NCBI GenBank assembly: GCA_036172315.1
Contig: JASFBC010000139.1
Span: 1,728-65,727 of the forward strand
Reading direction: 5' to 3'
Source of the DNA: Anaerolineae bacterium
GTDB taxonomy: Bacteria; Chloroflexota; Anaerolineae; B4-G1; DUEL01
Length of the DNA stretch: 64,000 nucleotides
This document shows positions 2,241-60,586 of the stretch, piece after piece. The stretch's first letter is position 1. Every line of letters begins with the position of its first letter. The notes below the pieces were generated by a model. The model made no database searches and was not told where the DNA came from. It saw only the letters and a list, made by a program, of their open reading frames with translations. Position numbers and translations under genes: made by a program.

Positions 2241-3062
2241 TTGGATCCTTCCTGGTTCTCCATGCTGCGTGCTCGCTTGCTCACGGCCCTGATCGCCCTT
2301 CCCCTTGTTATCGCTCTGATCAAGGTAGGGGGTATCGGGTTCTTCGCTCTCGTCCTCATCGTGTTCACAATGGCGGTCGTAGAATTCTGCCGCCTGATGG
2401 AAAAGGACCATTTCCGCCCTGCCCTGCCCTGGGCCCTGCTCCTCCTGTGGGTGCTGTTGCTGGACGCCCAGTTTCCCGGATGGGGGCTTTTCAGGCCTGG
2501 CCTCTCTCTGGTCCTGCTGGGCTCTCTGGCCTGGCAACTGGTTCACCGGCAGGGCAAACCGGTGGCCAACTGGTCTTTGACCATCGCGGGGGCCCTCTAC
2601 ATTGGCTGGTGCGGGTGGCACATCCTCCGCCTGCGAAGTATGCCCGATGGCCTCTGGTGGATAATGACGGTCCTGCCTGCCGTCTGGTTTGCCGACAGCG
2701 GTGCTTACTTTGTCGGCCACACGTGGGGCCGCCACAAAATGGCCCCGACTCTGAGCCCGGGCAAGACCTGGGAGGGCTACGTCGGGGGGATCGTGATCGG
2801 CACCCTCTTGACGGCTGGACTGGCGGCCCTCTGGAGCCTGGCCGCCAGCCCCAGCGGCCCCCGGGCCATAGATGGCGCCGGGATCGGCTTGCTGGTGGCG
2901 GCCCTTTCTCCGTTGGGTGACCTGGCAATCTCTATGGTGAAACGCCAGGTAGGTGCCAAAGATACCGGCACCCTGTTCCCCGGCCATGGCGGCGCGCTGG
3001 ACCGGATAGATAGCATTCTCTGGGCAGTTATCCTGGGCTACTATTTCGTCATCTGGCGGTAA
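2241..3062 (+). CDS. cdsA: Phosphatidate cytidylyltransferase
   Basis: Multi-TM protein with the CdsA signature region (SPGKTWEGYVGG..GHGGALDRIDS). Follows uppS. An alternative start at M8 (2262) is possible. Confidence 0.85.
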   Translation: MDPSWFSMLRARLLTALIALPLVIALIKVGGIGFFALVLIVFTMAVVEFCRLMEKDHFRPALPWALLLLWVLLLDAQFPGWGLFRPGLSLVLLGSLAWQLVHRQGKPVANWSLTIAGALYIGWCGWHILRLRSMPDGLWWIMTVLPAVWFADSGAYFVGHTWGRHKMAPTLSPGKTWEGYVGGIVIGTLLTAGLAALWSLAASPSGPRAIDGAGIGLLVAALSPLGDLAISMVKRQVGAKDTGTLFPGHGGALDRIDSILWAVILGYYFVIWR

Positions 3063-3121
3063 ATGGCAACCGGAACGCCTGCTGAAGGGCAAACTCATCA
3101 TCCCCATTCTGGAGGTTTCCC

Positions 3122-3526
3122 ATGACTCAACATCTGGTCCGAGAGATCTACCACAAAGGCGTCATCTTCTGCAACCCTGATACCCCCCTCCAGGAGGTCG
3201 TGCGGGTAATGGCCGATACCGACATTCACGCCATTATTGTGGCCGAAAGAGAGGGAGCAAAGCCGTTGGGGGTCATCTCTCACACCGATGCCATCGCTCA
3301 TTACGGGGAGGACTTGAGCCAGATTCGCGCCGGCGACGTGATGACCCGGGGGGTTATTACCATCTCAAAAGAGGCGCCGGTGGCCGAAGCGGTAAAGAAA
3401 ATGCTGGAAAGCCGGATCCACCGCCTCCTGGTTGTGGACGAGGACGGCACCCCTCTGGGTATTCTATCCACTACCGACATCATCCGCGATATGCGCGGCT
3501 CCAAATGGGTCTGGTATATGGGGTGA
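3122..3526 (+). CDS. CBS domain pair protein
   Basis: Two CBS motifs (HAIIVAERE..GVISHTD and HRLLVVDEDGTPLGILSTTDI). Confidence 0.8.
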   Translation: MTQHLVREIYHKGVIFCNPDTPLQEVVRVMADTDIHAIIVAEREGAKPLGVISHTDAIAHYGEDLSQIRAGDVMTRGVITISKEAPVAEAVKKMLESRIHRLLVVDEDGTPLGILSTTDIIRDMRGSKWVWYMG

Positions 3527-3529
3527 GCC

Positions 3530-4546
3530 ATGCCGGAGGAAATCATCACCATAGAACGGCACATCCTGGAGCAGGAGCGGGCCTATCCGGAGGCCACCGG
3601 CGTCTTCACCAGCCTCCTTTATGACATCGCGCTGGCGGCCAAAATCATCGCCCGCGAAACTTCCCGCGCCGGCCTGGTCCAGATTCTTGGTCTGGCGGGC
3701 AAGATCAACGTCCAGGGCGAAGCCCAGATGAAACTGGACGTTTTCGCCAACCAGACCATCATCCGTATGAACTCCTATACGGGCCGGTTGGCCGTGATGG
3801 CCTCCGAAGAGGAGCCGGACATTATCCCCATCCCCGAGGGCTATCCCACGGGCCGCTACGTTCTGGTCTTTGACCCCCTGGATGGCTCATCCAACATTGA
3901 CGTGAACGCCAGTATCGGCACGATTTTTGGCATTTACCGTCGCCGCACTCCCGCCGGGCCGGGAACGGTGGAGGATTGCCTTCAGCCGGGCCGAGACCTG
4001 GCGGCAGCCGGCTACATCATCTATGGCTCCAGCACGATGATGGTCTACACGACCGGCAATGGGGTGCATGGTTTCACCCTGGACCCAGGGGTGGGGGAAT
4101 TCCTGCTCTCCCACCCGAATATCCGCGTCCCGGCGGAGCCCAAATACTACAGCGTCAATCAGGGCAATGAGAAATACTGGAGCGAGGGTGTACGGCGGTT
4201 TACCCGCTGGCTCCAGGGGATGGACGAGGAGTCCCCTCGCCGGCCGCTCTCTGGACGCTACATCGGCTCCCTGGTTGCCGACTTTCACCGCAACTTACTG
4301 GAAGGCGGAATTTTCTACTACCCGCTGGATTATAAAGACCCCGGGAAACCCAAAGGGAAACTGCGTCTCCTTTATGAGGCCGCCCCGCTGGCCTGCATTG
4401 CCGAACACGCCGGAGGGTACGCTTCGGATGGGCAACGCCCCATCCTGGACATCGTCCCTCAAACCCTTCATCAAAGGACGGCGCTCTTTATCGGCAACCG
4501 GGAACTGGTGGAGATGGCGGAACGTTTTATCGCTCGCTATGGATGA
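3530..4546 (+). CDS. fbp: Fructose-1,6-bisphosphatase class I
   Basis: FBPase class I metal-binding region ([26 protein letters not shown]). 338 aa. Confidence 0.9.
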
Positions 4547-4549
4547 CTT

Positions 4550-4703
4550 TATGGACGACGGACGACGGACGATGGACAACGGACAACGGACCACCGTCGT
4601 CTGTGGTCTATGGTCTGGTGGTCTATGCTGTGGTCTGTGGTAGGAAGGCCGATTTTCCCATCGGCGCAAAAAGGGTGATCCCCATCAGGCGAATATAGTT
4701 ACC
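4550..4703 (+). repeat. Dispersed intergenic repeat element, copy A. A GGACGAC/GTCTGTGGTC repeat hairpin is followed by the conserved motif GGAGGCCGATTTYCCCATCGGCGC..AGGGTGAYCYCCATCRGGC..GTTAC
   Basis: The first half (GGACGAC-rich) and second half (GTCTGTGGTC-rich) are mutually complementary. The 3' ~60 nt are ~80% identical to copies at 9693-9806 and (reverse orientation) 56145-56300. Confidence 0.7.
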
Positions 4704-6112: not shown

Positions 6113-6877
6113 TTAATCTTGGGCTACGGTTTCCAGCCACTCCTGCACCGCGCTTGCCACCCGGTCTGGCTTCTCCAGCATCACCATGTGACCGGCTCCC
6201 TCTACCGGGATCCAGCGCGCGCCGGGAATGCGTTCCGCCAGCCACTGCCCAAACTTCGGCGGCGTCATCCGGTCTTCTGAGCCGGTGATCACCAGCGTCG
6301 GCGCGGTGATCTCCCCCACTCGCTCCCGGACATCAAAGCGGTCGCATGCGGCGAAATCCCCCCACACGACCTGAGGGTTTACGCGCGCCATCATCCGGCG
6401 GCCCCGGGCGACCATTGCCGGGTCGGCTTCCGGGCCCCAGGCCCATTCGGTGATGAGGGCCACCGTTCCCCGCGCGTCCTGCAGAATCCCCTCCAGGATG
6501 ACAGGCGCCACCCGTAAGCGCGCGCCAGTGCCCACCAGCACCAATCCGGCAACCCGCGCGGGAGCCAGCAGGGCCGCCATCTGGGCAATAGCGCCTCCCA
6601 TGGAATGCCCCACCAGCACTCCGCGCGCGACCCCTGTGGCATCCATAAAGCGGATGACGTCGGTGGCGTAGTCCTCTATCCGCTCCCGGCCCGGTCCCTC
6701 CGACCGCCCGTGTCCGGGCAGGTCTATGGCGTAGACGGTGGCACCGGGCATGCGGCGCAGTGCGGCCGGCCAGTGGAGGTGATTCCCGCCCGCCCCGTGG
6801 ATCAGGATCAGGGCAGGCCCTCCTCGCCCGCTAACGGTGTAGAAAAGGTGCTGTTCTCCTATCTGAGCAAAAGGCAT
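6113..6877 (-). CDS. Alpha/beta-fold hydrolase
   Basis: HGAGGN..GHSMGG nucleophile-elbow motif. The start is chosen at MPFAQIGEQ (GGAGGA SD 5 nt upstream); the ORF track extends to 6985. Confidence 0.75.
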
Positions 6878-6921
6878 GGGCTCCTCCAGCGTGCCAGGCA
6901 TTCCCCCGAGGTGCTGGCACG

Positions 6922-7512
6922 TCACCCTGATTTTTGGACCCCCGCCCGAAAGGCGGCCAGGTTGCGCTCCGGCTCCCGGGGCCACCGGTGCCGGATGGCT
7001 TCCTCCACGGCCGAAGCGGGGAGAATATTCCCCAGGCGAGTATGGCCAACCGCCGCCCCCAGTACGAACATGTTGGCTGGCAGACCGGCAGGGGATGAAT
7101 CCGGGGGGAGGTAGATGGGGTGCCCCTCCGCCGCGCGCACCTGCTCCAGCACCGTCTCCGGCGCCGGATACGCCGCCTTGCCCAGCAGGACGGCCGTTGG
7201 GAGCCAGCGCTCCCCGAAGAGGAGAAACTCCCCACCGGGCCGCAGGACGCGCACCGCCCGCAATGCCTCCGAGACCTCCATGGCGATGACCAGGTCGGCT
7301 CCCCGGGGTGGGATATTAGGGCCCGCCGTTGACCGTCCCAGCCGCAACTGAGCCTTGACCAGCCCGCCCCTTTGGGCCATCCCCTTGTAGGGATAGAAGC
7401 AGACCGGGAGGCCAAGGGCCACAGCCGCATCCGCCATCACCTCCCCGATAGTCAGGAGACCCTGACCGCCGACGCCGATGAGGAAAATGTCCAGAGTGTT
7501 ATCCGTTCCCAT
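6922..7512 (-). CDS. iorB: Indolepyruvate:ferredoxin oxidoreductase beta subunit (2-oxoacid:Fd oxidoreductase gamma-type)
   Basis: Starts MGTDNTLDIFLIGVGGQGLLT (POR gamma-type domain). Overlaps the iorA stop by 14 nt. The longer ORF-track N-terminus is alternate-frame read-through. Confidence 0.8.
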   Translation of the reverse strand: MGTDNTLDIFLIGVGGQGLLTIGEVMADAAVALGLPVCFYPYKGMAQRGGLVKAQLRLGRSTAGPNIPPRGADLVIAMEVSEALRAVRVLRPGGEFLLFGERWLPTAVLLGKAAYPAPETVLEQVRAAEGHPIYLPPDSSPAGLPANMFVLGAAVGHTRLGNILPASAVEEAIRHRWPREPERNLAAFRAGVQKSG

Positions 7513-9385: not shown

Positions 9386-9692
9386 TGCTCTCTCAGGGCA
9401 CTCCGTGTCGGAAATGGCGGGGCGCACAGGCCTGGCAGCCTGCGCTCCAGTTGTGCTCTTTGGGGCAAGTGGTTGCGATTATCTTTGAAAATCTTCATCA
9501 CACGCCCATTATAGCCAGGGTTGCGCCCCTGTCAACAGAGCAAAAGGAGGGCGGTCTCATCTCGTTCAGACCAGGGCCTTGCCTGGCCCGGTATATGTCG
9601 GATCGTTCATAAGCCCTGGGGTAACTATTCAGCGCTGATTGAAAGTAGCCTCTCCGGGCCTTTGGCCGGAGGACGGCCTGCGCCGTTCCGTT

Positions 9693-9806
9693 CAAGACGG
9701 ACGACAGACGACGGACCACCGACCGCTGCCATCTGTGGTCTGCGGGAGGGAGGCCGATTTCCCATCGGCGCCAAGAGGGTGACCTCCATCGGGCTGAATC
9801 GTTACG
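9693..9806 (+). repeat. Dispersed intergenic repeat element, copy B (shorter version of copy A)
   Basis: Carries gacggacgacagacgacggaccacc...ctgtggtctg, then GGGAGGCCGATTTCCCATCGGCGCCAAGAGGGTGACCTCCATCGGGCTGAATCGTTAC, ~90 nt upstream of mscL. Confidence 0.7.
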
Positions 9807-9895
9807 CCTCGGGTTCTATCCACAGCACTTGGCGCAAATCGCGGTTTTGTGTTATCATAACTGGTGCATTTCAGCCGCTGATGAGGAGGCCAACG

Positions 9896-15273: not shown

Positions 15274-16176
15274 ATGCTCCCTGCTCCCTGCGACCTGGGC
15301 ATCGTCATCGTCAACTACAACACCCGCGACCTGCTGCGGGCGTGTCTGCGCACCGTCTACGCCAGCCGGGGGGATTTCACCTTTCAGGTCTGCGTGGTGG
15401 ATAACGGCTCCGCCGATGGAAGCGGGGAAATGGTGACGGCGGAGTTCCCCCAGGCCCACTCCATTCTCAACCCGGACAATCGGGGGTATCCGGCGGCCAA
15501 CAACCAGGGACTGCGCCTGCTGGGGTTCCCGGACGGCGCCGACGCGCCTCGCTTCGCCCTGCTCCTCAACCCGGATACCGAACTCCCTCCCGACGCGCTG
15601 GCGAAGATGCTGGCCTTTCTGGAGGCGCATCCGGAGGCCGGCGTTGCCGGCCCCAAACTGGTGCGGCAGGACGGCTCCCTGGACCTGGCCTGTCGTCGTT
15701 CCTTCCCCTCGCCGGAGGTCTCTTTCTACCGGTTCTCCGGCCTGGCGCGCCTCTTTCCCCGCAGCCGCCGCTTTGGGCGCTACAACCTCACCTACCTGGA
15801 CCCGGACGAGATGGCGGAGGTGGACGCCGTGGTGGGGGCTTTTATGATGCTGCGCCGGGAGGCCATCGCCCAAGTTGGCCTGCTGGATGAGGGGTTCTTT
15901 ATGTACGGGGAAGACCTGGACTGGTGCTACCGCATCAAGGCGGCGGGCTGGAAAGTGTACTACAACCCGGAGGTAACGGTTCTCCACATCAAGCGGGCCG
16001 CCAGCATTCGCAACCCCCGCGCCCAGGTGGAGTTCTGGCGGGCGATGGATTACTTCTACCGGAAACACTACGCTGCCCGCACCCCCTGGCCGCTCCACGT
16101 CCTGATTCTGGCAGCCATCCGGACCCGAACCCATCTGGAGCGGCTGCGCTGGCGGATAGCGGGGGTGAAGGTATAA
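15274..16176 (+). CDS. Glycosyltransferase family 2
   Basis: IVIVNYNTRDLL, VVDNGSADGS and NRGYPAANNQG (DXD-containing GT-A fold). Paralog of the gene at 60585-61511. Confidence 0.85.
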   Translation: MLPAPCDLGIVIVNYNTRDLLRACLRTVYASRGDFTFQVCVVDNGSADGSGEMVTAEFPQAHSILNPDNRGYPAANNQGLRLLGFPDGADAPRFALLLNPDTELPPDALAKMLAFLEAHPEAGVAGPKLVRQDGSLDLACRRSFPSPEVSFYRFSGLARLFPRSRRFGRYNLTYLDPDEMAEVDAVVGAFMMLRREAIAQVGLLDEGFFMYGEDLDWCYRIKAAGWKVYYNPEVTVLHIKRAASIRNPRAQVEFWRAMDYFYRKHYAARTPWPLHVLILAAIRTRTHLERLRWRIAGVKV

Positions 16177-24309: not shown

Positions 24310-25061
24310 GGTGACCTCCGGAGTGAAACGGGAAGAGTGAAACGTGAAACGGGAGCGTAGAATATCGGGATCGGGTCGCCCAGGACGGGTTGAGGGCGGC
24401 GAATCCACAGGTCCCACCAGGCCAGCCAGAGGGCCAGGACTTCGCGGGCCCAGTACTGGCGGATGTGGATGTAGGGGTGTCGGTCGGCCACGAAGCCAAC
24501 GGCGTCTATTCCCAGGCGCTTGCAGGTATAGAGAGCGCGCGGCAAGTGATAGCGCTGGGTGACAACCACCACCTCCCTCAGGCCGAAGATGGCCTTCGCC
24601 CGATAGCAGGTGTCATAGGTGCGCCGCCCGGCATAATCCAGGACGATGTCCTCCTCCGGCATTCCCAGCGTCCGGGCGACCTCCCGCATCTTCTCCGGCT
24701 CGTTGTAATTCACGAAGCGGTTATCGCCGCTGAAGAGGAGTTTGCGGACCCGCCCGGCCCGGTAGAGTTCCACCGCTGCCGTCACCCGGTCTCGCAGGAT
24801 GTCACTGGGCGTACCGTCGGGCCAGTAGCCAGCGCCGAAGACCAGCGCCACCGGGCGCTCCGGCACCGCCGCCGGGTCGGTGGAGATGAGCCTCCGGTAG
24901 CGCACGGTCAGCGTCCAGAGGGTCCAGCCCCCGACCGCGCCCAGGACAGAGAGGAGGACGCAGATGAACGCGGATAGACGCAGATGCCATCTGTATGTTT
25001 CTACGCTTCTCTGCCCAGGCCTACGTTCCTCCGGGTCCATCTTTTTTATTTTTCCTCCCAT
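23976..25061 (-). CDS. DUF218 (SanA/YdcF/ElyC family) membrane protein. Only the first ~237 aa look genuine; the C-terminal ~110 aa is low-complexity read-through overlapping the HD gene
   Basis: VFGAGYWPDGTPSDILRDRVTAAVELYRAGRVRKLLFSGDN is the DUF218 core. There is no in-frame stop until 23976. Confidence 0.6.
   Translation of the reverse strand: MGGKIKKMDPEERRPGQRSVETYRWHLRLSAFICVLLSVLGAVGGWTLWTLTVRYRRLISTDPAAVPERPVALVFGAGYWPDGTPSDILRDRVTAAVELYRAGRVRKLLFSGDNRFVNYNEPEKMREVARTLGMPEEDIVLDYAGRRTYDTCYRAKAIFGLREVVVVTQRYHLPRALYTCKRLGIDAVGFVADRHPYIHIRQYWAREVLALWLAWWDLWIRRPQPVLGDPIPIFYAPVSRFTLPVSLRRSPCNPPEKMPGNWSPSTSRTRTCSSICWPWRRPCGPMPAASGRTRRNGPWWGSSTTLTTSASLKTTRSPAPASCGSKAGLRRLSAPSSPMRPNGPAWSGRTGWSTPSTPWTT
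24322..24352 (-). promoter_or_regulatory. Three direct repeats of GTGAAAC(G) immediately upstream of the HD-domain gene SD
   Basis: Plus strand reads agtGAAACGggaagagtGAAACGtGAAACGgg. The position suggests an operator or activator site. Confidence 0.3.
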
Positions 25062-27241: not shown

Positions 27242-27332
27242 CCTCACCCCACCCCCGCTGCCTTCGGCGGCACCCTCTCCCCTCTCCGGAACTTTGTTCA
27301 GGTGAGGGAGGGGGCAGGGGGGAGGGGTGAGG
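27242..27332 (-). repeat. ~90-nt two-hairpin element E1 (outer stem CCTCACCCCACCCC/GGGGAGGGGTGAGG, a UUC-loop hairpin, and a 14-bp hairpin); a second copy lies at 57879-57970
   Basis: ~85% identical to 57879-57970, with compensatory changes in the small hairpin (gctgcc-ttc-ggcggc vs ggccc-ttc-gggcc). Sits between the O-antigen-ligase gene stop and the rph ATG. Confidence 0.7.
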
Positions 27333-30300: not shown

Positions 30301-30747
30301 CAGACTGTTGAGAATGAGCGTCGTGATGAACCGGTCCACCTGAGCGCGGGTACGCATCCGGTCCAGGATGATGAGAAAAACGACGATATAAGAGAGCGTA
30401 GTGAACGTCCCCTGAAGCCGCTGGTAGGAGCCGAAGAAACTGGTGTACGGAGTGACCGAGAAGGCAGTGCTGATCAAGTAGACCAGGACGGTGAAGAGAG
30501 TCGGCAGGACCAGGGGGGTGCGCCAGGAGAAGCGCAGGCGACCCCCACCAGCGACCCATCCCTCCACCCGGCGGGCCAGCCAGACGGCGGCCATCACCAG
30601 GGCGATGGAGCGCAGGGTGGTCAGTTTATCCGGTTCAAAGACGCGGCTGGAGTAGATGTTGAAAAAAAGGGGCGTGACGATGATGGCCGCCAGCCATCCG
30701 GCCTCCAGAATGCCGTCCAGAATCGCGCTGAAGCGGGTGGTGTTCAT
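27337..30747 (-). CDS. O-antigen ligase/polymerase-like (Wzy_C) polytopic membrane protein with a C-terminal TPR domain
   Basis: More than 12 TM helices with a Wzy_C-like core. The C-terminal ~350 aa consist of TPR repeats. 1136 aa. Confidence 0.7.
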   Translation of the reverse strand: MNTTRFSAILDGILEAGWLAAIIVTPLFFNIYSSRVFEPDKLTTLRSIALVMAAVWLARRVEGWVAGGGRLRFSWRTPLVLPTLFTVLVYLISTAFSVTPYTSFFGSYQRLQGTFTTLSYIVVFLIILDRMRTRAQVDRFITTLILNSLPIALYGFVQHARRDPLPWGGDVTQRVASNMGNPIFVAAYMIMAAFPTLGRAVDAFRSLLTDEKAGISEVLRAAAYIFIFLVQVISIWYTHSRGPLMGLVMGLAVWAFLGLLALRRAALREVPHPTDLLEDVQAGITFGLGSIVGAGIVGAGLYLALRGAAQANPSLQWAPAVGALLVIAGSWLAFIVNGRGWRWLWAAALVTVLLFAAGFLTVNLAEPVHAWAQEQPWMGRLDDVLQAETGTGKVRSLIWEGARRLVLPHQPIQYPATTADPTGHPDPFNLIRPLVGYGPESMYVAYNRFYPPLLGHYESRTASPDRSHNETLDSLVITGLVGFAAYLWLFGSLFYYGLSWLGWIPDPSRRRLFFGLLVTGALAAVAAVIPTVGPHFFGLAVPVGMVLGMLAYLVICGFFSPESLPAAHPHQILLIGILAAFVAHLVEINFGIAIASTRTTFWTLAAVFVLLGTQAITEREERPAAPQTVPSPKSKGRKRRRRPATPPPAPSSAVPAWLWPALGSALIGALILGTLAYDFVNNVERLSNPAQIFWRSLTVIAIGGPPRQSLGILLVFGMAWAMTTLLTVTQMAHRGVFGQRRGDLWLAALIVLLVSLTVGMTFGLLLAGRHAAVLRMRVQNVNDLLRLAEYIAGQIGAYYGFLAVVIFLGGLALAGERWIPKKWGTAWGPVALAVLLPLAAFGAVQANLRPIRADIIYKQADPWDRSGQWGAAVPHYQRAVQLAPHEDFYYLYLGRALLEAATVTTDTTQQEAILRETERVLLQAQALSPLNTDHSANLARMYQRWADLPAGQAQRETLLNLASRYYEAATSLSPNNPILWNQWATLYFYSLRDEERFWECINRSLAVDDGFEQTWLIVGDARAMKGDLVGAAEAYRKALEIVPAMPQVWNALARVYLQQGQDDLAVEALGRSLELDPTGSWAWDAHRLLAIAYYQKGLLEMALAEAQTALQMAPEEQKPAIEQLIGQLQPSVPVTP

Positions 30748-31709
30748 CTATCTTCCTCGGGCATCGCCTCTACCAGTTCGCCGTAGGAGAAAATGATATG
30801 AAAGCCCAGGGCCTGGATTCGCTCCTGTACCTCCGGCCGGGCCCGGTAGCAGAAGCAGACGGGAAAGATTTCTCCCTCCAGGTTGCGGCGGGCTATTTCC
30901 ACCGTTCGGGCGAACTTTTCCACTTCCCGCATCGTCAGATTGTGTTTGGCCTCCCCCACAATCCAGATGCGCCGTTCCGGTTGGGCCGGGTCGCGGGCCT
31001 CGCCGAAGATGTTGACCTCCCGCTTCTGGCCATCCCACCGCTGCCAGACCCGCTTCAGTTCTCCCACCTGCCAGCCCTTTTTCTGGCCGAGGACCCGGTG
31101 GATCACGATGTAGGCGATGTCTTCTATATCTCCACCAACGGTTTCGCTGAGTCCACCGACCTGGTGGGCCAGTCTATCCACTTTTCGCTCGGTGCGGGCC
31201 TGGGCCGCCGCCAGTTCCTCAATCCGCGCCTCGGTGCGGGCTTGAGCCCTGGCCAGTTCCTCAACCCGCGCCTCCGTCCGGGCCTGGGCCTCCGCCAGCC
31301 GGTCCAGCGCGGCTTCTATGCGGGCAAAGCGGGCCTCCGAAGCCTCCCGGTATTTCCGGAATTCCTCCTCGGTGCGGGCCTGGGCCTCCGCCAATTCTCG
31401 GACCTGCGCTTCGGTGCGGGCCTGGGCCTCGGCCAGCCGGTCCAGCGCCGCTTCTATGCGGGCAAAGCGGGCCTCCGAAGCCTCCCGGTATTTCCGGAAT
31501 TCCTCCTCGGTGCGGCCCTGGGCCTCGGCCAGTTCCTGGATGCTCTCTTTGAGGTCCTGGACGTCCTCGCGGGTGGCAAACTCCCCCCGAATCTGCCCCG
31601 CGATCAGACCGAGAGTATCGGCCAGGATTTCAGCCTGAGGCTCATCAAACGCGTTGAGAAAACGCCGAAAGAGCAGAGAGCGTTCCAAGTTCGTGATCGA
31701 GATACTCAT
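30744..31709 (-). CDS. Coiled-coil protein with a C-terminal PD-(D/E)xK nuclease-like domain (DUF3782-like), containing an internal 46-aa tandem repeat
   Basis: Start MSISITNLERS with an AGGAGG SD. EEFRKYREASEARFARIEAALDRLAEAQARTEA occurs twice (a 138-bp direct nucleotide repeat at ~31288-31563). The C-terminus has IWIVGEAK (ExK) and E..IFGEARD. Confidence 0.6.
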   Translation of the reverse strand: MSISITNLERSLLFRRFLNAFDEPQAEILADTLGLIAGQIRGEFATREDVQDLKESIQELAEAQGRTEEEFRKYREASEARFARIEAALDRLAEAQARTEAQVRELAEAQARTEEEFRKYREASEARFARIEAALDRLAEAQARTEARVEELARAQARTEARIEELAAAQARTERKVDRLAHQVGGLSETVGGDIEDIAYIVIHRVLGQKKGWQVGELKRVWQRWDGQKREVNIFGEARDPAQPERRIWIVGEAKHNLTMREVEKFARTVEIARRNLEGEIFPVCFCYRARPEVQERIQALGFHIIFSYGELVEAMPEEDR

Positions 31710-32731
31710 CGTTGCCTCCTGGATGGATAAAGAGATCGCTCCGCAGGAGTGGTCCTCTGGTATCCCATTATCCCATTCCGAAACCACTCCAGCGTCCGCT
31801 GGAGTCCCTCCTCCAGCGGCACTTCGGCCTCAAAGCCCAGAATCTCCCGCGCCCGACGCACGTCGGGCACCCGGCGGCGGGTCTCCTCAAAGTCCGGGCC
31901 GTAGGCGGAAGCATAGGGAACATGGACGATCTCCGATCGGGAGCCAGTCAGGGTTAGAATCCGTCGGGCTAGGTCGGCAATGGTGATTTCCCGGTCAGAG
32001 CCAATGTTGAAGACCTCTCCGGCAGCCTCCGGGACGGTCCCCGCCAGGATAGTGCCCCGCACCGTGTCGGCAACGTAGGTGAAACAGCGGGTCTGCTGGC
32101 CATCCTCGTAGACGGTGAGCGGCTCGCCCCGCAGCGCCTGGGTGAAGAAGCGGGCGATGACGCTCCCGTAGCCACGCGGGTCCAGGCGCGGGCCATAGGC
32201 ATTGAAATACCGTACCACGGTAACCGGCAGCCCTTTTCTGGCGTAGGCCAGGGCGAAGTACTCGTCTATCGCTTTAGCATCAGAATAGGACCAGCGGGGG
32301 ACGGTGGTCGGGCCCAGAAGCCGGTCCCCGTCTTCCCGCAGCGGCACGTCGGTGGATTTCCCATAGACCTCGGAACTGGAGGCGATGACAGTGCGCACCC
32401 AGTACTTGTGAGCCAGTTCCAGGACGTTTTCCGTCCCCCGAACGTTGACGATGATGGCATTCAACGGGTCCTCCACCACGTACTTGACACCGACGACGGC
32501 GGCCAGGTGAAAGATGAGATCGGCCCGGCGGATCAGCCGCTCCAGTGCGGTGGTGTTGAGGATGGAGTCGTTGATGAATCGGAACCGTTCGCTCCCCAGA
32601 TGGTGGGCGATGTTAGCGACTTTGCCCACGGATAAGTTATCCAGGACGGTGACCTGGTGCCCCTGGGCCATCAGGGCATCCACCAGGTGAGAACCGATGA
32701 AGCCCGCCCCGCCGGTGACCAGGACTCTCAT
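31706..32731 (-). CDS. NAD-dependent epimerase/dehydratase (extended SDR, UDP-sugar modifying)
   Basis: VLVTGGAGFIGSHL Rossmann motif and YSDAK (YxxxK). Start at MRVLVTGG, with a GGAGG SD. Confidence 0.85.
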   Translation of the reverse strand: MRVLVTGGAGFIGSHLVDALMAQGHQVTVLDNLSVGKVANIAHHLGSERFRFINDSILNTTALERLIRRADLIFHLAAVVGVKYVVEDPLNAIIVNVRGTENVLELAHKYWVRTVIASSSEVYGKSTDVPLREDGDRLLGPTTVPRWSYSDAKAIDEYFALAYARKGLPVTVVRYFNAYGPRLDPRGYGSVIARFFTQALRGEPLTVYEDGQQTRCFTYVADTVRGTILAGTVPEAAGEVFNIGSDREITIADLARRILTLTGSRSEIVHVPYASAYGPDFEETRRRVPDVRRAREILGFEAEVPLEEGLQRTLEWFRNGIMGYQRTTPAERSLYPSRRQR

Positions 32732-36647: not shown

Positions 36648-36782
36648 ACTCGTTCCCTGTGGGGTAAATTGTAGCACAGAACTCCATCCCCGCAAGATGC
36701 CACTTGCGCCCCCGCCGAATCCCGATACAATATGAATGACGGACGACAGACCACAGGCCACAGGCGACAGTTCGGAGGGAAC

Positions 36783-47729: not shown

Positions 47730-47968
47730 CGTTTCTCCTCCTGGGTTGGTAAATGGTAGATTGGTGATCGGTAAATTGGTATGGGGTCGGGGGATGTATC
47801 CGTCTTCTCCTCCAGGCATCACCTCCTTTCGCACAGATGAGAACTGACACGCTCTATAAATAATACAGTTTGCGGGCCAAAAAGGTTCAAATCAGACCAC
47901 AGACGATGGACGACAATCGTCCGTGGTCCGAGGTCCGTCGTCAGTCGTCCGTGGTCCGTCGTCCGTGG

Positions 47969-49621
47969 TCAGTGATCGGTAGTCAGTGACCGGACCATAT
48001 ACGTTCCCTCCAGGCGGAAGCCGCGCGCCCGGTAGTAGGGGCGGGTGCCGACGGCAGCGATGACGGCCAGCCGCCGGTAGCCGGCCTCCCGGGCCATGTC
48101 CGCCGCCCGCTCCAGGAGACGGGTGCCCAAGCCCGTGTGCTGGGCCCGCCCATCCCGCCGCCGGCCCAACTCCAGCGCCGGACCGTAGACATGGAGTTCC
48201 CGCACCACGGCGCTCCCGCGCAGTTCTTCCAACTCCGGCTCCACCCGGGGGAAAGAGAGCCGCAGGAAGCCCGCCAGATGCCCGTCCGGAGTCTCGCCCG
48301 CCAGGAAGTGCTCCACCGTGGCGTCGGTCTCGTAGGAGGTGACGGTAAGGGCCAGGGACGACGGGTCCACCGGCCGGCCGCGCACCTCCCGGCAGCGGAT
48401 GCACCGACAGCGCAGGCCCTGGCGCATCATCTCCGCCCGCACCACCTCCCGCAGGTTGGAACGGGTCACCCCAGCGACGATGTTCGGGGCCGGGATGTCC
48501 CGCATCAGGCGGTTGAGCCGGACGTAGGGAGGGATGAGGGCTTTGCAGGCCACCAGTAGCCGGACCAGCGTCTCCTCGTCGTAGGGCCGGTACTTTCCTT
48601 CCCGCCAGAGGTCGTAGAGGTCGGTCTCCTCCAGGAGCAGACAGGGGTAGATTTTCAGTTCGTCGGGCCGCAGAGCGGGGTCCTCCCACAACCGCCGGAA
48701 GTCTTCCAGGTCCCGCTCCGGGGTGGCACCGTAGAGATCGGGCATCCAGTGGAGGAGGATTTTGAAGCCCGCCAGGCGGAGCCGCCGGACGGCAGCGCGG
48801 GTCTCAGCGACGGTGTGGCCGCGCCGGTTAAGGGCCAGAATCTCGTCGTTCAGGCTCTGGACGCCCAGTTGGACTTTGGTCACCCCCAGGGCGCGCAACC
48901 GGCGGACTTCATCCGGGGTAATGCAGTCGGGCCGGGTCTCCACCACCAGCCCGACGTTGCGGTGAGGGGCCGTCTCGTTGCGGGTCTGGGCCTCTACCAG
49001 GGTCGGGGACTCCTCTCCGTTCATCGCATCCAGGCAGCGGCGGACGAACCATTCCTGGTAGTCGGGGGAGTAGTCGGACCAGGTGCCGCCCAGGATGAGG
49101 AGTTCTACCTTGTCGGTGGGGTGGCCGATGTTCTCCAGCGCCTGGAGGCGGCCCGCCGTCTGGGCAAAGGGGTCGTAGCCGAAGCGGATGGCCCGCTGGA
49201 CCCCCGGCTCGTCGGGGAGGTAGGATTTGGGGGCATTGGGGACGGTCGGGCAGTAGAGGCAGCGGCCCCGGCATGGGTGCGGCGGGGTCAGGACGGAGAC
49301 GGGGGCGACGCCGGAGATGGTGCGGGTGGGCTTGCGGCTCAAGGCCTGCTCCAGGCGCGGGTCGGGCGTCAGTTCGCCCACGGCGCAGAGGCGGCGGTAG
49401 GCGCGCAGGAGTTGGTCGCGAGAATAGAGGCCACCGCCAGGGCGGGGGTATTGGCGGATGATGGCCTCTACCCGTCTGGGCGTCAGGTGCCCGGCAGAGG
49501 CCAGGGCGCGCACGCAGGCCGCGCCCTCGGGGGCAACCGCAAGGGTTGTCCCTACAACGGTGGCCGCCAGAGATGGCTGGTATCGTTCATCAGCACCAGG
49601 CGGTAGAATTTCCCATTCCAT
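47969..49621 (-). CDS. Elp3-like radical SAM / GNAT acetyltransferase (tRNA U34 carboxymethyl-modification enzyme homolog)
   Basis: Radical SAM motif CRGRCLYCP, SGVAPVSVLTPPHP, a central radical SAM core, and a C-terminal GNAT (RRLAVIAAVGTRPYYRARGFRLEGTYMVRSL). An alternative GTG start at ~49513 would avoid the 70-nt overlap with the upstream gene. Confidence 0.8.
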   Translation of the reverse strand: MEWEILPPGADERYQPSLAATVVGTTLAVAPEGAACVRALASAGHLTPRRVEAIIRQYPRPGGGLYSRDQLLRAYRRLCAVGELTPDPRLEQALSRKPTRTISGVAPVSVLTPPHPCRGRCLYCPTVPNAPKSYLPDEPGVQRAIRFGYDPFAQTAGRLQALENIGHPTDKVELLILGGTWSDYSPDYQEWFVRRCLDAMNGEESPTLVEAQTRNETAPHRNVGLVVETRPDCITPDEVRRLRALGVTKVQLGVQSLNDEILALNRRGHTVAETRAAVRRLRLAGFKILLHWMPDLYGATPERDLEDFRRLWEDPALRPDELKIYPCLLLEETDLYDLWREGKYRPYDEETLVRLLVACKALIPPYVRLNRLMRDIPAPNIVAGVTRSNLREVVRAEMMRQGLRCRCIRCREVRGRPVDPSSLALTVTSYETDATVEHFLAGETPDGHLAGFLRLSFPRVEPELEELRGSAVVRELHVYGPALELGRRRDGRAQHTGLGTRLLERAADMAREAGYRRLAVIAAVGTRPYYRARGFRLEGTYMVRSLTTDH

Positions 49622-51471: not shown

Positions 51472-51637
51472 GGGGGGCCTCCTTACATCGGTATGCTGGT
51501 GATTGGTATACTGGTGATTGGTATATTGGTGATTGGTAGCATACTGGGGTTCGCCGCGCCTGGGGCAATTTTACCACAAAATGATGTATTTGCCACTCTG
51601 AGGATAGGTGGGTTGGGTTTTGCGGCTCAGGCGGGCC

Positions 51638-56144: not shown

Positions 56145-56300
56145 AAGCCTGTAACTCTTCAGCCCGATGGGTATCGCCCTCCTGCGCCGATTGGAAGTCG
56201 GCCTCCCTGCCACAAAGACCACAGACCATAGACCACAGACCACGACGGTGGTGGTCGGTGGTCCCTCGTCCATCCGGAAAGGACGACGCAGGCCGTCCAT
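56145..56300 (-). repeat. Dispersed intergenic repeat element, copy C (reverse orientation)
   Basis: The reverse complement reads ..ggacga..ccaccgtcgtggtctgtggtctatggtctgtggtctttgtggcaGGGAGGCCGACTTCCAATCGGCGCAGGAGGGCGATACCCATCGGGCTGAAGAGTTAC, matching copies A/B. Confidence 0.7.
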
Positions 56301-56384
56301 TGGCCGCAGGCCCAGAAAGGCGAACTTTCCGTCAACGCTGGATCGTCACCAAAAGCCCTTGCGAAACATGGCTTCGTGACGGAG

Positions 56385-56960: not shown

Positions 56961-59225
56961 TTACTGAACCCGAATCCGGCTCAGGAGCAGGAAATTCTGG
57001 CCGTCCTCCAGCCGGAGACGTTCGCCGGTATCGGGCCGGTAAAGACCGATTTCCACCTCGTAGAAGCCCGGCGGCGTCTCCGGCTTCACCCGCAGCGTAT
57101 AGGTCTCCCGATATACCTCCCCGGCCCGCCACTGAGACGTGGGCGGGGTCGGCGGACGGTCCTCTTGCCCCCAGAGGGTCTGCGGCGGCTCCAGGATGTG
57201 GGTAAAGACGGTGTAATCGTGTTCTGTGGGGCCAAGGGCTCGCCAGTACAGGGCCAACACGACCGTATCGCCGGGCCGCACCCGCCGGGGGGCCAGTTCG
57301 TACCCCACCAGTTCTATCCGGTCGCCGAAACGGTAGGAGACGGGGTTGGGATAGGGGCCCGGCCGGGGCCGAAGCGCTATTTCTCCGAAAGAAACGTAGC
57401 GCTGGCTGTCAGCCTGCCCGGCAACTGGCATCCGCTCCCGGGTCCGCAGGTCGTAGAAGCCCATCATCAGCGAAAGGCGCGCCGGAGCCACAGCGGTCTC
57501 AGGCACCCGCAGGCGGAAGACCTCCGCCCAGCGTTCCCCGGCCCGCAGTTGGGTCGCCCGGACCAGCCCCTGGCGGGGGTAGCGGTCGTCCTGGGCCAGG
57601 ATGATCTCCAGGTCGTCCACCAAGTGGACGAAGAGGCTCCAGTCCCGCGTCGGGGGCCGGAGGGCCTCCAGATAGAGCGTCAGGTCTACAGTCTCCCCTG
57701 GCTCCAGCGAGGATGGACGGAGGTCATACCCCAGCAGGCGGAACTCGTCGCCGAAGGTTGCCTCCATGGGGTTGGGGACCTCCACCGGAACGGGCAGATC
57801 AGGGGGACGGTAGGCGGGGGCGATCCAGAGGGCCGGCGCCAGCAGGGCCAGGGTCCCCAGGAAGACGGCAGGAAGGAACCTCACCCCACCCCCGGCCCTT
57901 CGGGCCACCCCTCTCCCCTCTCCTGAACTTTGTTTAGGAGAGGGGAGAGGGGATAGGGAGGGGGGTGAGGAAAGCACCCGCGCCACCTGCTCCCAACCGA
58001 TCCACAGTCCCAGGGAGATGAGCCCGATGGCGGGGAACATCAGCCGCCCTTGGGAGGCGAGGGTCTGGGAGGTCCAACGCAGGAAGGCCGCGAGGAGCAC
58101 CGTCATATAGCCCAGGAGCCCCAATCCGACGGCCCACCTTTCCCCCCAGGCACGGGTGCGGACCGCGTGGGTCAGCCCCCGGCCCACCCGAGCCAGAAGC
58201 CCCAGGGTTGCCAGAGCGGTCCAGGCGTCCAGCACCCGGTATATCCACACTGGCATCAGGACGTTCATCCCCCCGAAGACGCCCCAGAAAGACCAGCGGA
58301 AGCCCTGGAATTCCCGTAGAAGGTCGGCGGGGGTGGCGGCTCGCCGCCCGACGATGTCCAGCATCACGGAGAGTCCAAAGGGGTCATGGTAGAGGGTCCA
58401 GTTGCGCCAGAACCACCAGCCACAGAGGGCCAGGGCGGTGGAAAACACTGCCAAAAGCGCCAGGCCCTTCTGGGAGGAGCGCGGGGCTTTGACCAGCAGA
58501 ACAACCAGCGCCAGAGGCCAAAGGGTCAGACCGCTCAGTTTGGCCAGCGCGGCCGTCCCGAGCACAACTCCCAGCAAGAGGGCGCGCGGCCAGGAGAATC
58601 CCCGCCGCCAGATGATGGCCAGCAACCAGAGCCCGGCGGCGGTGCCAGCGTTAACCAGGGTATCGTTGTTCACCGACGCAGCGATGAAGAGGAACATCGG
58701 GTTAACGGCAACCAGCAAGCCACTCCCCAGGGCCCAGCCTGGGTGGTCAGGAAAGAGGAGGCGCACCGTGCTCACTGTCGCCAGGACCGTCAGCAGGCCC
58801 AGTGATACCGAGACCAGCCGCCAGAGGTGGAGGGTGAGGATAGTGCCACGCCAGGGGAAGGCTTCGCCGGGGCCATGTAGCGCCTGATTCCGGTTGGCGA
58901 TGCGGGAGGTGTCGCCAGAGGAAGCATGGGGGTTTGGGAGGTAGACGACGTCCAGATCATCCAGGGGAAGGCGGAACAGGTGGGTGAACCCGGCCAGCAG
59001 GGCATAGTAGAGGGGGGGCTGACTGCCTTCCTGTCGCCAGGGCGTCTCCTCCCCGGGGTGCTGCACCGGGAGTCCCTCACCCCGCGTCAGCCGGCCCACC
59101 ATGCCGATGTGCCACCTTTCGTCGGAAGACTCAAAGAGGGGGTTGGCCGCGCTGTACAGGAGAGCCAAGGCCAGGTAGAGGAGCAGGAGAGGCATTCGCT
59201 GAAAAGAGAAGCGCTGATCGGACAT
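56961..59225 (-). CDS. GT-C fold glycosyltransferase (PMT/ArnT-like, GT39/GT83 type) with a C-terminal twice-repeated beta-rich domain. The ORF contains an in-frame copy of the ~90-nt repeat E2 and may be two genes
   Basis: N-terminal ESSDERWH (DE motif in loop 1) and more than 10 TM helices. Residues ~420-450 (SSPPSLSPLPSPKQSSGEGRGVARRAGGGVRF) are the translation of element E2. Downstream are a signal-peptide-like segment and a duplicated F.LLGYDL..G..V.L.LYW domain. Confidence 0.65.
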   Translation of the reverse strand: MSDQRFSFQRMPLLLLYLALALLYSAANPLFESSDERWHIGMVGRLTRGEGLPVQHPGEETPWRQEGSQPPLYYALLAGFTHLFRLPLDDLDVVYLPNPHASSGDTSRIANRNQALHGPGEAFPWRGTILTLHLWRLVSVSLGLLTVLATVSTVRLLFPDHPGWALGSGLLVAVNPMFLFIAASVNNDTLVNAGTAAGLWLLAIIWRRGFSWPRALLLGVVLGTAALAKLSGLTLWPLALVVLLVKAPRSSQKGLALLAVFSTALALCGWWFWRNWTLYHDPFGLSVMLDIVGRRAATPADLLREFQGFRWSFWGVFGGMNVLMPVWIYRVLDAWTALATLGLLARVGRGLTHAVRTRAWGERWAVGLGLLGYMTVLLAAFLRWTSQTLASQGRLMFPAIGLISLGLWIGWEQVARVLSSPPSLSPLPSPKQSSGEGRGVARRAGGGVRFLPAVFLGTLALLAPALWIAPAYRPPDLPVPVEVPNPMEATFGDEFRLLGYDLRPSSLEPGETVDLTLYLEALRPPTRDWSLFVHLVDDLEIILAQDDRYPRQGLVRATQLRAGERWAEVFRLRVPETAVAPARLSLMMGFYDLRTRERMPVAGQADSQRYVSFGEIALRPRPGPYPNPVSYRFGDRIELVGYELAPRRVRPGDTVVLALYWRALGPTEHDYTVFTHILEPPQTLWGQEDRPPTPPTSQWRAGEVYRETYTLRVKPETPPGFYEVEIGLYRPDTGERLRLEDGQNFLLLSRIRVQ
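57879..57970 (-). repeat. Second copy (E2) of the ~90-nt two-hairpin element, located in-frame inside the GT-C ORF
   Basis: ~85% identity to 27242-27332 with compensatory stem changes. Confidence 0.7.
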
Positions 59226-59249: not shown

Positions 59250-60410
59250 TCAGCGATTAAAGCGCCCCAAAAACGCCGCACTCCGGCGGGCGATGCGGTC
59301 CCAGGAGAAATCGGCAGCGAGGGCCCGCGCGCCGGCTTCCAGGCGGGCCCGCAGCGCTGGATCACGCCAGACCTGCAGGACCGCTTCTGCCAGCGCGCCC
59401 ACGTCCCGGGGCGGCACCAGCCGCATGTTTTCCCCGTCCCGTACCTCTGGCAGCGGCAGGGCCGGGTGGGTGGTGACGATGGCTCGCCCATGGGCCAGGC
59501 AGGCATGCAGCGTCCCCCGCCGGAAGGAGACCCCGTCCCGGTAGGGGAGGACGCAGAGGTCGGTCGCCAGAAGGCCCGCCGAGACCGCCTGAGGGTCGGT
59601 ATAGCCGGTCCAGTGGACCCGCTCTGTCAGCCTCAATTCAGCAATGAGGCCATCTATGAAAGCGGCGTAGGCCCGGTTGGTGGGGTCGGAGGTGCCCAAC
59701 CGCCCGCCGACCATCAGCAGGTGAGCCGGAACTCCTCGCTCCACCAGCAGAGCCAGCGTCCGGATCAACTCCTCCCCACCCTTGCTCTCGTTAAGGAAGC
59801 CGAAGTAGCCCAGGAGGAGGTCATCGGGGCCCACGCCCCAGCGGGCTCGCTCGGCGGCCCGGTTGTAGCCTGGAGGCGGCTCTGGCGGGATGTTACTCCC
59901 GATGGGGATCAGGGCCAGCCGATCCGGGGGAATTTCCCCCTCCAGCCGGAGGTAGTCCTCCCGGTTGGTGACGATCACGCCGTCGGCGCGGCGGGCCAGC
60001 AGACGGACCGCTTGCCAGCGCAGGGGGCCGGCCTTGGGAAAGAGATACGGCACCCGCAGGTCGTGGAAGGTGACCACCAGCGGCGGGCGTGCCGAGGGCC
60101 GGGGGAGGAAGTGGACCGCCGGGTGCATCCCATACGCGGCGGCCTGGTACTGGAGGTTCTGGACTTCCAGGCGCTCCGCCCGGGCCACCCGCAAGACCTC
60201 CCGCCAGCAGCCCCAGCGCCAGGAGGGGACGACACGATGCACGGCGCAGGGGGCAGGGGGCAAGTCGCGGGGGGCAGGGGAGCGTAGAGGGCCGGTGATG
60301 ATGTGGACGTCGTGGCCCAGCGCGGCCAGCGCTTCCGCCAGCCGGAAGGTGAAATCCCCTACGCCGCCCTGGTCGGGGGGAAATTCGCCGGTCACCAGTC
60401 CGATGCGCAT
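59250..60410 (-). CDS. Glycosyltransferase family 4 (GT-B, glycosyl transferase group 1)
   Basis: MRIGLVTGEFPPDQGGVGDF N-terminus and the C-terminal EX7E-type region. Start at MRIGLV. Confidence 0.85.
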   Translation of the reverse strand: MRIGLVTGEFPPDQGGVGDFTFRLAEALAALGHDVHIITGPLRSPAPRDLPPAPCAVHRVVPSWRWGCWREVLRVARAERLEVQNLQYQAAAYGMHPAVHFLPRPSARPPLVVTFHDLRVPYLFPKAGPLRWQAVRLLARRADGVIVTNREDYLRLEGEIPPDRLALIPIGSNIPPEPPPGYNRAAERARWGVGPDDLLLGYFGFLNESKGGEELIRTLALLVERGVPAHLLMVGGRLGTSDPTNRAYAAFIDGLIAELRLTERVHWTGYTDPQAVSAGLLATDLCVLPYRDGVSFRRGTLHACLAHGRAIVTTHPALPLPEVRDGENMRLVPPRDVGALAEAVLQVWRDPALRARLEAGARALAADFSWDRIARRSAAFLGRFNR

Positions 60411-60495: not shown

Positions 60496-60586
60496 AAAAT
60501 CCATATTCATCTGCGTTTCATCTGCGTTTATCTGCGTCCTAAAAATCCATATTCATCTGCGTTTCATCTGCGTTTATCTGCGTCCT
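60496..60586 (-). repeat. Two tandem copies of a 45-bp AT-richer unit, each made of three 11-nt sub-repeats (gene-strand ACGCAGATRAA), in the GT2-GT4 intergenic leader
   Basis: aaaatccatattcatctgcgtttcatctgcgtttatctgcgtcct occurs twice. The 11-nt period suggests iteron or response-regulator-type sites. Confidence 0.7.

Follow-up and report, generated by a model that had tools for sequence, protein, structure and literature searches.

What kind of element is repeated in the spacers 5' of rho, mscL and yceD-sigA in a genome fragment of an Anaerolineae bacterium (Chloroflexota; contig JASFBC010000139.1, positions 1,728 to 65,727)? The window analysed here is this whole 64-kb stretch of DNA, and a first-pass annotation had described three related repeats in it, each pointing at the downstream gene, as a MITE/REP-like element (that is, resembling MITEs, which are miniature inverted-repeat transposable elements, or repetitive extragenic palindromic sequences, REPs) that may carry or modulate promoters. 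Our answer, to which we give a probability of roughly 0.85, is that the copies are non-autonomous DNA transposons, i.e., MITEs, with IS66-family ends of the ISBst12 group. The MITE half of the older description is upheld by terminal inverted repeats, 8-bp target-site duplications, presence or absence in related genomes and IS66/ISBst12-like ends, while the promoter or modulator half is not.

The three related repeats, named here copies A, B and C, are real. A 23-nt core pattern gave two exact matches in the window against none expected (copy A departs from it by one additional T), and a profile made of copies B and C recovered these two (E=2e-59 for B, 8e-65 for C), copy A (E=5e-25) and otherwise only heptamer blocks. 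B and C are 78% identical, and their alignment together with the flanks added 50–70 nt of 5' sequence common to both; the extents first proposed had omitted about 72 nt of B and 49 nt of C, including the left terminal inverted repeat. Copy A, previously listed as a full copy, covers only profile positions 77–201. It is 5'-truncated, keeps the 3' two thirds, has neither the left inverted repeat nor the 5' module, starts directly after the stop codon of the FBPase gene and ends with ...GGCGAATATAGTTAC immediately before the rho ribosome-binding site CAGGAGG. Copies B and C begin with GTAAC/GTGAC and finish with GTTAC, the first 13–15 nt being the reverse complement of the last 13–15 nt (GTAACTATTCAGC / GCTGAATCGTTAC in B, GTGACGATCCAGC / GCTGAAGAGTTAC in C). 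Between these ends follow, in this order, the 5' module, which includes the GCCTCTCCGGGCCTTTGGCCGGAGG hairpin, a variable heptamer hairpin, the hairpin AGGCCGATTTCCCATCGGCGC and a subterminal stretch. Each arm of the variable hairpin consists of tandem heptamers, the first arm GGACGAC-like and the second GTCTGTG-like as delimited by Tandem Repeats Finder (TRF), and in copy A this hairpin is long and imperfect with many G-T/G-U pairs. At 185 bp (B), 199 bp (C) and 122–232 bp (related elements), all are non-coding, below the approximate limit of 300 bp for MITEs and too short to have coding capacity for a transposase.

Target-site duplications, a check that the first-pass annotation had proposed, were found intact in relatives of these copies (loci given by L numbers). 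Perfect 8/8 duplications flank four related elements that have both ends (L176, CAAAGTCA; L181, CCGCCGAC; L199, GTTCAGAA; L203, GCGAAAGG) and a fifth one with the same canonical ends and another interior (L217/L219, TTATTCTC), the contig of L217 coming from a relative with 95% Rho identity. In L212 the duplication TCGCCCG(C/T) matches at 7/8. When left and right flanks of different elements were paired as mismatched-partner controls, 7/8 was never attained and 6/8 or more was seen in 0.6%. The 134-bp elements of L181 and L199 have only two differing positions, although they are at different loci with different duplications, and this indicates that they moved recently. At L217 the 122-bp element (2472–2593) has GTAATTACCTACCC ends and an interior unrelated to the rest.

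The ends themselves point to a transposon family. By the rule of ISfinder, the ends of IS66-family elements start with GTAA and their duplications are of 8 bp (8–9). Within this family ISDge4, of the ISBst12 group, is delimited by GTGACTACTCAGCA/GTAACTGCTCAGCA and has a direct repeat of 8 bp (PMC12898284), and one ISBst12-group IS66 element has been recorded on the Geobacillus kaustophilus plasmid pHTA426 (PMC8024623). The IS66-like element that we read on pHTA426, and that we infer to be this very copy, has a single 485-amino-acid open reading frame (ORF) matching Pfam DDE_Tnp_IS66 (E=2e-64) and zf-IS66, the RefSeq label "IS66-like element ISGka4 family" for its transposase, ends GTATCTATTCAGCCC ... 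GGGCTGAATAGTTAC and a flanking 8-bp duplication GACGAGTT. Both ends of copy B agree at 14/15 bases with that element's right end (read as GTAACTATTCAGCCC). The copies' ends start with GTAAC and the duplications are 8 bp long, both as in the ISBst12 group, and with the 14/15 identity this places the end type and the duplication length in that group. The near-match to ISBst12-group elements of both Geobacillus and Deinococcus suggests that the transposase group is shared by thermophiles across phyla. A further stretch, L181 4465–4690, has IS66/ISBst12-like ends (GTAACTGCTCAGC...GCTGAGCAGATAC) around an unrelated interior, its left end being tandemly duplicated and its end sequence equal to the first 13 bases of the 14-nt end of ISDge4. 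A 475-amino-acid ORF adjoining a repeat end in L181 was considered as the parent transposase and discarded, being a glycosyl hydrolase.

Presence and absence at orthologous sites bear on the alternative that the repeats are a structured cis-regulatory RNA, or a small RNA, acting on the downstream gene. Conservation at orthologous positions is what such an RNA should display, whereas the element is absent 5' of rho (84–96% protein identity), mscL (88%) and yceD (82–90%) in the checked relatives, which span 82–96% identity overall. The fbp-rho spacer alone exists in at least five states among close relatives (Table 1). Beside this we observed that in sample ERZ4756918 the rho-upstream (L223) and mscL-upstream (L228) spacers both contain a GCCGAGAACGCCGAGAA...TCTCTGCG element, while in the window both contain the MITE, so that the repeat family occupying these two spacers differs from genome to genome. 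In L230–L232 (88% MscL identity) an IS4/IS5-type transposase gene (DDE_Tnp_1, 2932–3864) lies directly 5' of mscL, where the window has copy B.

Folding was examined from the same angle. B and C each fold as a whole into one long hairpin, better than shuffled sequences (z = -3.0 and -2.9), the closing helix is altered on both sides between subfamilies, and the core stem exhibits double changes from GCCGAT/ATCGGC to GCTGAT/ATCAGC, all of which an RNA would explain. A long hairpin is nonetheless to be expected wherever inverted ends enclose internal palindromes, and the "closing helix" is accounted for by the inverted repeats alone. Core-stem variation is scarce in a sample biased by the search pattern, the few double changes (C-G to T-A) being matched by equally many broken pairs. 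The heptamer hairpins of A (-44.3 kcal/mol sense vs -24.5 antisense) and C (-33.5 vs -26.4) are 7–20 kcal/mol more stable on the sense strand via G-U pairs, and that of B has no such difference. The 27-nt fbp-rho gap of a relative lacking any insert (L221) leads us to think that fbp-rho is probably an operon and that copy A is transcribed through, as part of the fbp-rho transcript. B and C are upstream of host promoters and so probably outside the transcripts of those genes. The three downstream genes are functionally unrelated, Rfam searches (gathering and E-value thresholds) with the window and seven copy-rich loci gave nothing relevant, and both the duplications and the near-identical copies at unrelated loci show transposition. 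Taking all this together, a regulatory RNA seems to us extremely improbable.

The other functional alternative, raised by the first-pass annotation, is a mobile promoter or expression module, with an outward promoter or a modulating effect and co-orientation kept by selection. All three window copies face the start of the downstream gene, many metagenome copies stop 20–150 nt short of a same-strand ribosome-binding site and start codon, and there is a weak co-oriented excess in tandem contexts. Pfam confirms the neighbours rho, mscL and yceD-sigA, A lying between FBPase and rho on the same strand, B between a POR-type oxidoreductase and mscL, and C between a Fer4 protein and yceD-sigA. Since these last two pairs are divergently transcribed, B and C would face a gene start in either orientation, and pointing at the gene is automatic; copy A, co-oriented with its neighbours, is the only orientation-informative copy in the window. 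In the metagenome family, crude gene calls based on GC content at third codon positions (GC3), wrong at least on the yceD side of copy C, sorted the contexts into 32 tandem, 9 divergent and 7 convergent ones. Among the tandem ones 21 copies are co-oriented with transcription and 11 opposed, a difference that does not reach significance (two-sided binomial p about 0.11). Co-orientation consequently has no weight as an argument, and of the two outcomes by which the first-pass annotation was to be judged, many further copies in related genomes were indeed found and a clear orientation bias was not.

No promoter-like or terminator-like site was found inside A, B or C, including any sigma-70-like pair of hexamers. 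The promoters adjoining B and C are host DNA. The block TCC.C.GCACTTGGCGCAAATCGCGGTTTTGTGTTATCATAA, which holds the predicted mscL promoter, is kept in relatives (88% MscL identity) without the element, and the yceD promoter, CTTGACGAA.GCCTTCTTTTCTGTTATAATATG, is unchanged in three relatives (82–90% YceD identity) also without it. The TTGACG-17-TATAAT promoter formerly linked to copy C is genuine, only it is not carried by the element. For exact empty sites of B and C the flanks of the relatives are too diverged or rearranged for base-level alignment, the promoter blocks alone being alignable. We see a very small chance, on this evidence, that the repeats act as mobile promoters. Between the yceD promoter and yceD itself we also observed a leader of about 110 nt (window about 56075–55960, minus strand) that is conserved in L234 and L238. 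It finishes with a hairpin and then a T-run (CCAGGCACTT...AAGTGCCTGGTTTTTGTG), has no Rfam match and has the appearance of a conserved leader RNA or attenuator of the yceD-sigA operon.

Table 1. Positions of the elements, their parts, adjoining promoters and compared spacers (window coordinates unless a locus is given).
Feature	Position	Strand	Remarks
Copy A, 5'-truncated MITE copy	4547–4702	+	occupies most of the fbp-rho spacer
Heptamer-repeat hairpin of A	4553–4641	+	TRF: (GGACGAC/GGACAAC)x6 then (GTCTGTG/GTCTATG)x6
Core hairpin of A, AGGCCGATTTTCCCATCGGCGC	4646–4667	+	stem GCCGAT/ATCGGC
Left target-site duplication of B, decayed, GCCCTGGG	9613–9620	+	6/8 match with 9806–9813
Copy B, complete 185-bp MITE	9621–9805	+	ends 14/15 identical to pHTA426 IS66-like element
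Left inverted repeat of B, GTAACTATTCAGCGC	9621–9635	+	
5' module of B with GCCTCTCCGGGCCTTTGGCCGGAGG hairpin	between left inverted repeat and heptamer hairpin	+	
Heptamer hairpin of B	about 9696–9745	+	
Core hairpin of B	9751–9771	+	
Right inverted repeat of B, GGGCTGAATCGTTAC	9791–9805	+	
Right target-site duplication of B, decayed, GCCTCGGG	9806–9813	+	partner 9613–9620
Host mscL promoter, TTGGCG-18-TATCAT with TG	9829–9858	+	outside copy B, begins 23 nt past its end
Short solo heptamer array (GACGGAC/ACAGGCC)	36731–36770	+	no complementary arm, no MITE sequence; profile E=0.11
Solo heptamer-repeat hairpin, GGACGAC/GTCCGTC type	47894–47975	+	TRF and profile; no other MITE sequence
Host yceD-sigA promoter, TTGACG-17-TATAAT	56111–56083	-	about 40 nt beyond 3' end of C, outside the element
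Copy C, complete 199-bp MITE	56151–56349	-	
Left inverted repeat of C, GTGACGATCCAGC	56349–56337	-	
Heptamer hairpin of C	about 56282–56210	-	
Core hairpin of C	56204–56184	-	
Right inverted repeat of C, GGGCTGAAGAGTTAC	56165–56151	-	
5' flank of C, decayed target-site duplication, GGCTTTTG	56350–56357	-	minus-strand sequence; partner AGGCTTTG at 56150–56143
fbp-rho spacer, window and L216	4547–4720 (window)		copy A; Rho identity 100%
fbp-rho spacer, L223 and L224	1497–1713 (L223)		unrelated element of about 217 nt; Rho identity 94–96%
fbp-rho spacer, L217 and L220	526–791 (L220)		GCAGGATAAATCCTGCGCTAC hairpin arrays; Rho identity 95%
fbp-rho spacer, L222	1–152		G-rich hairpin repeat; Rho identity 90%
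fbp-rho spacer, L221	9974–10000		bare, 27 nt; Rho identity 84%

The distribution of the family beyond the window was studied by two scans. A loose-pattern scan of a genome collection returned 119 stretches, mostly chance matches, and sorting with nhmmer left L009, L014 and L106 as real relatives; true relatives were found on contigs of metagenome-assembled genomes (MAGs) of Thermoflexales and Anaerolineae. A stricter metagenome scan with the 21-nt core hairpin gave 96 stretches which, together with the MAG loci and the window, amount to 132 core copies in about 75 distinct loci, a set that includes several chance matches inside coding sequence (e.g., L121, L140, L184, and L201). In the collections scanned, the core was not found in viral contigs and copy B was not found in plasmids. 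With three copies in 64 kb, 96 metagenome stretches and a presence that varies between related genomes, the family is as dispersed as a MITE should be.

The canonical full-length form of these relatives starts with GTAACTGCCTACCC, then ACGCCGACTGAAGTCGCCC..TGGGGCCTTCGGCC, continues with the GC hairpins GCGTCGGCGCAGGCCGACGC and GGCGCGAAGCGCC and then CCCAGGA-AGGCCGATTTCCAATCGGCGC, and ends with ACGGCGGCGGGCAGCC-GGGTAGGTAATTAC. In 5' module and core it is homologous to B and C. After GTAAC its inverted repeats diverge from the window type, and the middle slot has other hairpins. The contents of this slot go from GC hairpins, with up to six tandem 19-mers in L203, through CCCCTCTCC/GGAGAGGGG hairpins (L106, L188, and L207) and GGCCCGAGGGGCC types (L014 and L145) to the heptamer hairpins of the window. 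One locus, L137, combines a window-type left end with a canonical interior. We observed there (6833–7078) that the loop of a hairpin with tandem GAAGACAC arms encloses the MITE copy bearing the window-type left end, the reverse of the nesting in the window, where the short-unit hairpin is within the MITE.

Mosaics of this kind are also what would be expected of REPs and bacterial interspersed mosaic elements (BIMEs), spread by a REP-associated tyrosine transposase (RAYT, of the IS200/IS605 type, tyrosine/HUH) or by recombination and not by a DDE transposase. Short GC-rich palindromes (GCGTCGGCGCAGGCCGACGC, GGCGCGAAGCGCC, and the core hairpin) make up the interior as a mosaic, and they often stand in tandem without inverted repeats, as in L009 (x4), L197 (x9), L170 (x5) or the six 19-nt hairpins of L203. 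REP superfamilies are tagged GTAG or CGTC (PMC3733652), and the canonical right end GGGTAGGTAATTAC does contain GTAG. On the other hand, REP/RAYT and IS200/605 mobility leaves no target-site duplication, and here five elements have perfect 8-bp ones; the ends are true inverted repeats of 14–15 bp that nearly match a DDE-type IS66-family element, and no RAYT gene was seen, although no systematic search for one was made. CGTC-tagged REPs in particular were considered and rejected, given that CGTC is paired within the stems of the internal hairpins, and is not the unpaired tag of the CGTC-REP definition, and that target duplications are present. We regard a REP/BIME origin as very unlikely. Integron attC sites were likewise discarded, with ends (...GTAAC, GTTACGC/GTTACAG) that do not fit RYYYAAC/GTTRRRY, the R''/R' core sites which in integrons follow cassette ORFs close to an integrase, core housekeeping genes as neighbours and 8-bp duplications.

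Several observations weigh against the reading of the copies as ISBst12-type MITEs. Within the window the duplications are degenerate only, 6/8 for B, and for C the flanks GGCTTTTG / AGGCTTTG pair only if a 1-nt indel is permitted, which is weak evidence. Neither tblastn with the Geobacillus IS66 transposase nor a six-frame CWAHxRR scan brought up an IS66 transposase in the window or the fetched loci. No long element with these ends was seen there either, GTAA-type inverted-repeat pairs 0.9–3.6 kb apart in the same sequences being due to chance only. Subfamilies with differing inverted repeats (...TTCAGC... vs ...CCTACCC...) have the 5' module and the core hairpin of the interior in common. 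An interior better conserved than the ends is the opposite of what MITEs usually show, and it hints that the interior is under some constraint. Many core modules are in tandem and without inverted repeats (L009, L197, L170, and L177), so a second amplification route, slippage or unequal recombination, for example, must exist. Finally, the sense-strand-favoured folding of the A and C heptamer hairpins is not predicted by a purely DNA-level element.

Such observations could be read as meaning that the conserved interior, that is, the GCCTCTCCGGGCC...GGCC 5' module, the near-invariant AGGCCGATTTCCMATCGGCGC and the cassette slot between them, is a functional module riding on transposon ends and not filler. 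This idea, which we hold to be unlikely, fits the interior being kept despite swapped repeats, its occurrence in tandem without them and the better sense-strand folding of two of the three window copies. If true, the interior would be a protein-binding or RNA-level element, acting for instance on mRNA stability or processing or on nucleoid structure in thermophilic Anaerolineae, and the swapping of repeat families at the fbp-rho and mscL-upstream spacers could reflect selection for some hairpin array.

With the copies read as MITEs, a DDE transposase encoded elsewhere would bind the terminal inverted repeats of about 15 bp, an element of 130–230 bp would be inserted at a staggered 8-bp cut, and repair would yield the 8-bp duplication. 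The interior would be a hairpin mosaic in which a variable cassette stands between the conserved 5' module and the conserved 21-nt hairpin (AGGCCGATTTCCMATCGGCGC), and the heptamer cassette of the window genome plausibly changes length by slippage. The window copies are old fossils, as B and C are only 78% alike, their duplications have decayed and A has no left end, the loss of which makes A immobile. B and C would occupy neutral space between divergent host promoters, and no regulatory role is indicated for any of the copies.

Heptamers are also found apart from the MITEs. The blocks at 36.7 and 47.9 kb, which had been taken for partial copies, contain heptamers only and no other part of the element (Table 1). 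They are a separate phenomenon from the MITE copies, and the hairpin at 47.9 kb, devoid of MITE sequence, demonstrates that the heptamer block also occurs on its own. Other short tandem repeats, with units of 7–15 nt (e.g., TTGGTAAA, GGTATACTGGTGATT, TTCATCTGCGT, or CATCCTG), were observed in window spacers at 47746–47781, 51490–51539, 60496–60587, 24321–24351 and 60246–60280, and similar ones in L137 (7150–7190). The heptamer hairpin of the MITE copies appears to be one case of a genome-wide habit of short spacer repeats.

The window has other repeats as well. A second dispersed repeat of about 80 nt, 73% identical between its copies (27248–27327 and 57884–57963), is a long hairpin with C-rich and G-rich arms (CCCCTCTCC...GGAGAGGGG); this type is also in the rho-upstream spacer of L222, and in L138 it adjoins a heptamer array. 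Tandem repeats of 42 and 138 nt (81–89% matches) at 31188–31535 fall inside a minus-strand ORF (30744–31787) and are probably a repetitive protein domain. The longest inverted repeat of the window (15394–15512 / 61285–61403, 119 nt, 76% complementary) has its arms 46 kb apart, possibly as paralogous gene segments.

Overall, these copies belong to an abundant and apparently undescribed MITE family of uncultivated thermophilic Chloroflexota (Thermoflexales/Anaerolineae); in the literature searched we have found no paper joining ISBst12 with MITEs, nor any describing such MITEs in Chloroflexi. The repeats 5' of rho, mscL and yceD-sigA do not warrant annotation as promoters or regulatory RNAs. In close relatives, several short contigs break off at a repeat-filled spacer or close to one, as would fit fragmentation of the assemblies by these repeats, and insertion polymorphisms could be usable as strain markers. 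Otherwise this is ordinary mobile-element biology.

Several known systems resemble these elements in part. Short tandemly repeated repetitive sequences (STRR) of cyanobacteria, reportedly described by Mazel and co-workers in 1990, are short tandemly repeated heptanucleotides, and here too the variable block is made of intergenic tandem heptanucleotides, with further heptamer arrays scattered in the window spacers. The likeness is one of description; the phylum and the unit sequences differ, and in our case complementary, hairpin-forming pairs are inside a transposon. Correia, ERIC, RUP, and BOX elements are bacterial MITEs that affect the expression of neighbouring genes and have documented promoters, RNase sites or integration host factor (IHF) sites. 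Our copies are similarly small inverted-repeat elements, promoter-proximal or intercistronic, hairpin-forming and, for copy A, probably transcribed through, but none of those sites was detected in them, RNase and IHF sites not having been searched for. With REPs and BIMEs (PMC3733652) they share short GC-rich intergenic palindromes, mosaics and tandem clusters that vary between strains; REPs, however, are 20–40-nt palindromes with an unpaired GTAG or CGTC tag, are RAYT-dependent, with a RAYT gene flanked by REPs, and lack long inverted repeats and target-site duplications, whereas the copies have inverted repeats and 8-bp duplications. The closest resemblance is to MITEs derived from IS66/ISBst12 elements, the parent type being exemplified by the pHTA426 element and by ISDge4 of Deinococcus geothermalis, with inverted repeats that begin GTAAC (GTAACTATTCAGC(G/C)C here, GTAACTGCTCAGCA in ISDge4), 8-bp duplications, thermophile hosts and a small, non-coding, multi-copy form. 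Our copies have no linked transposase gene in the window or the fetched loci. Their interior bears no likeness to the subterminal regions of the Geobacillus element and is a palindrome mosaic with a strongly conserved 21-nt hairpin, and a sister subfamily has this same interior between other ends (GTAACTGCCTACCC).

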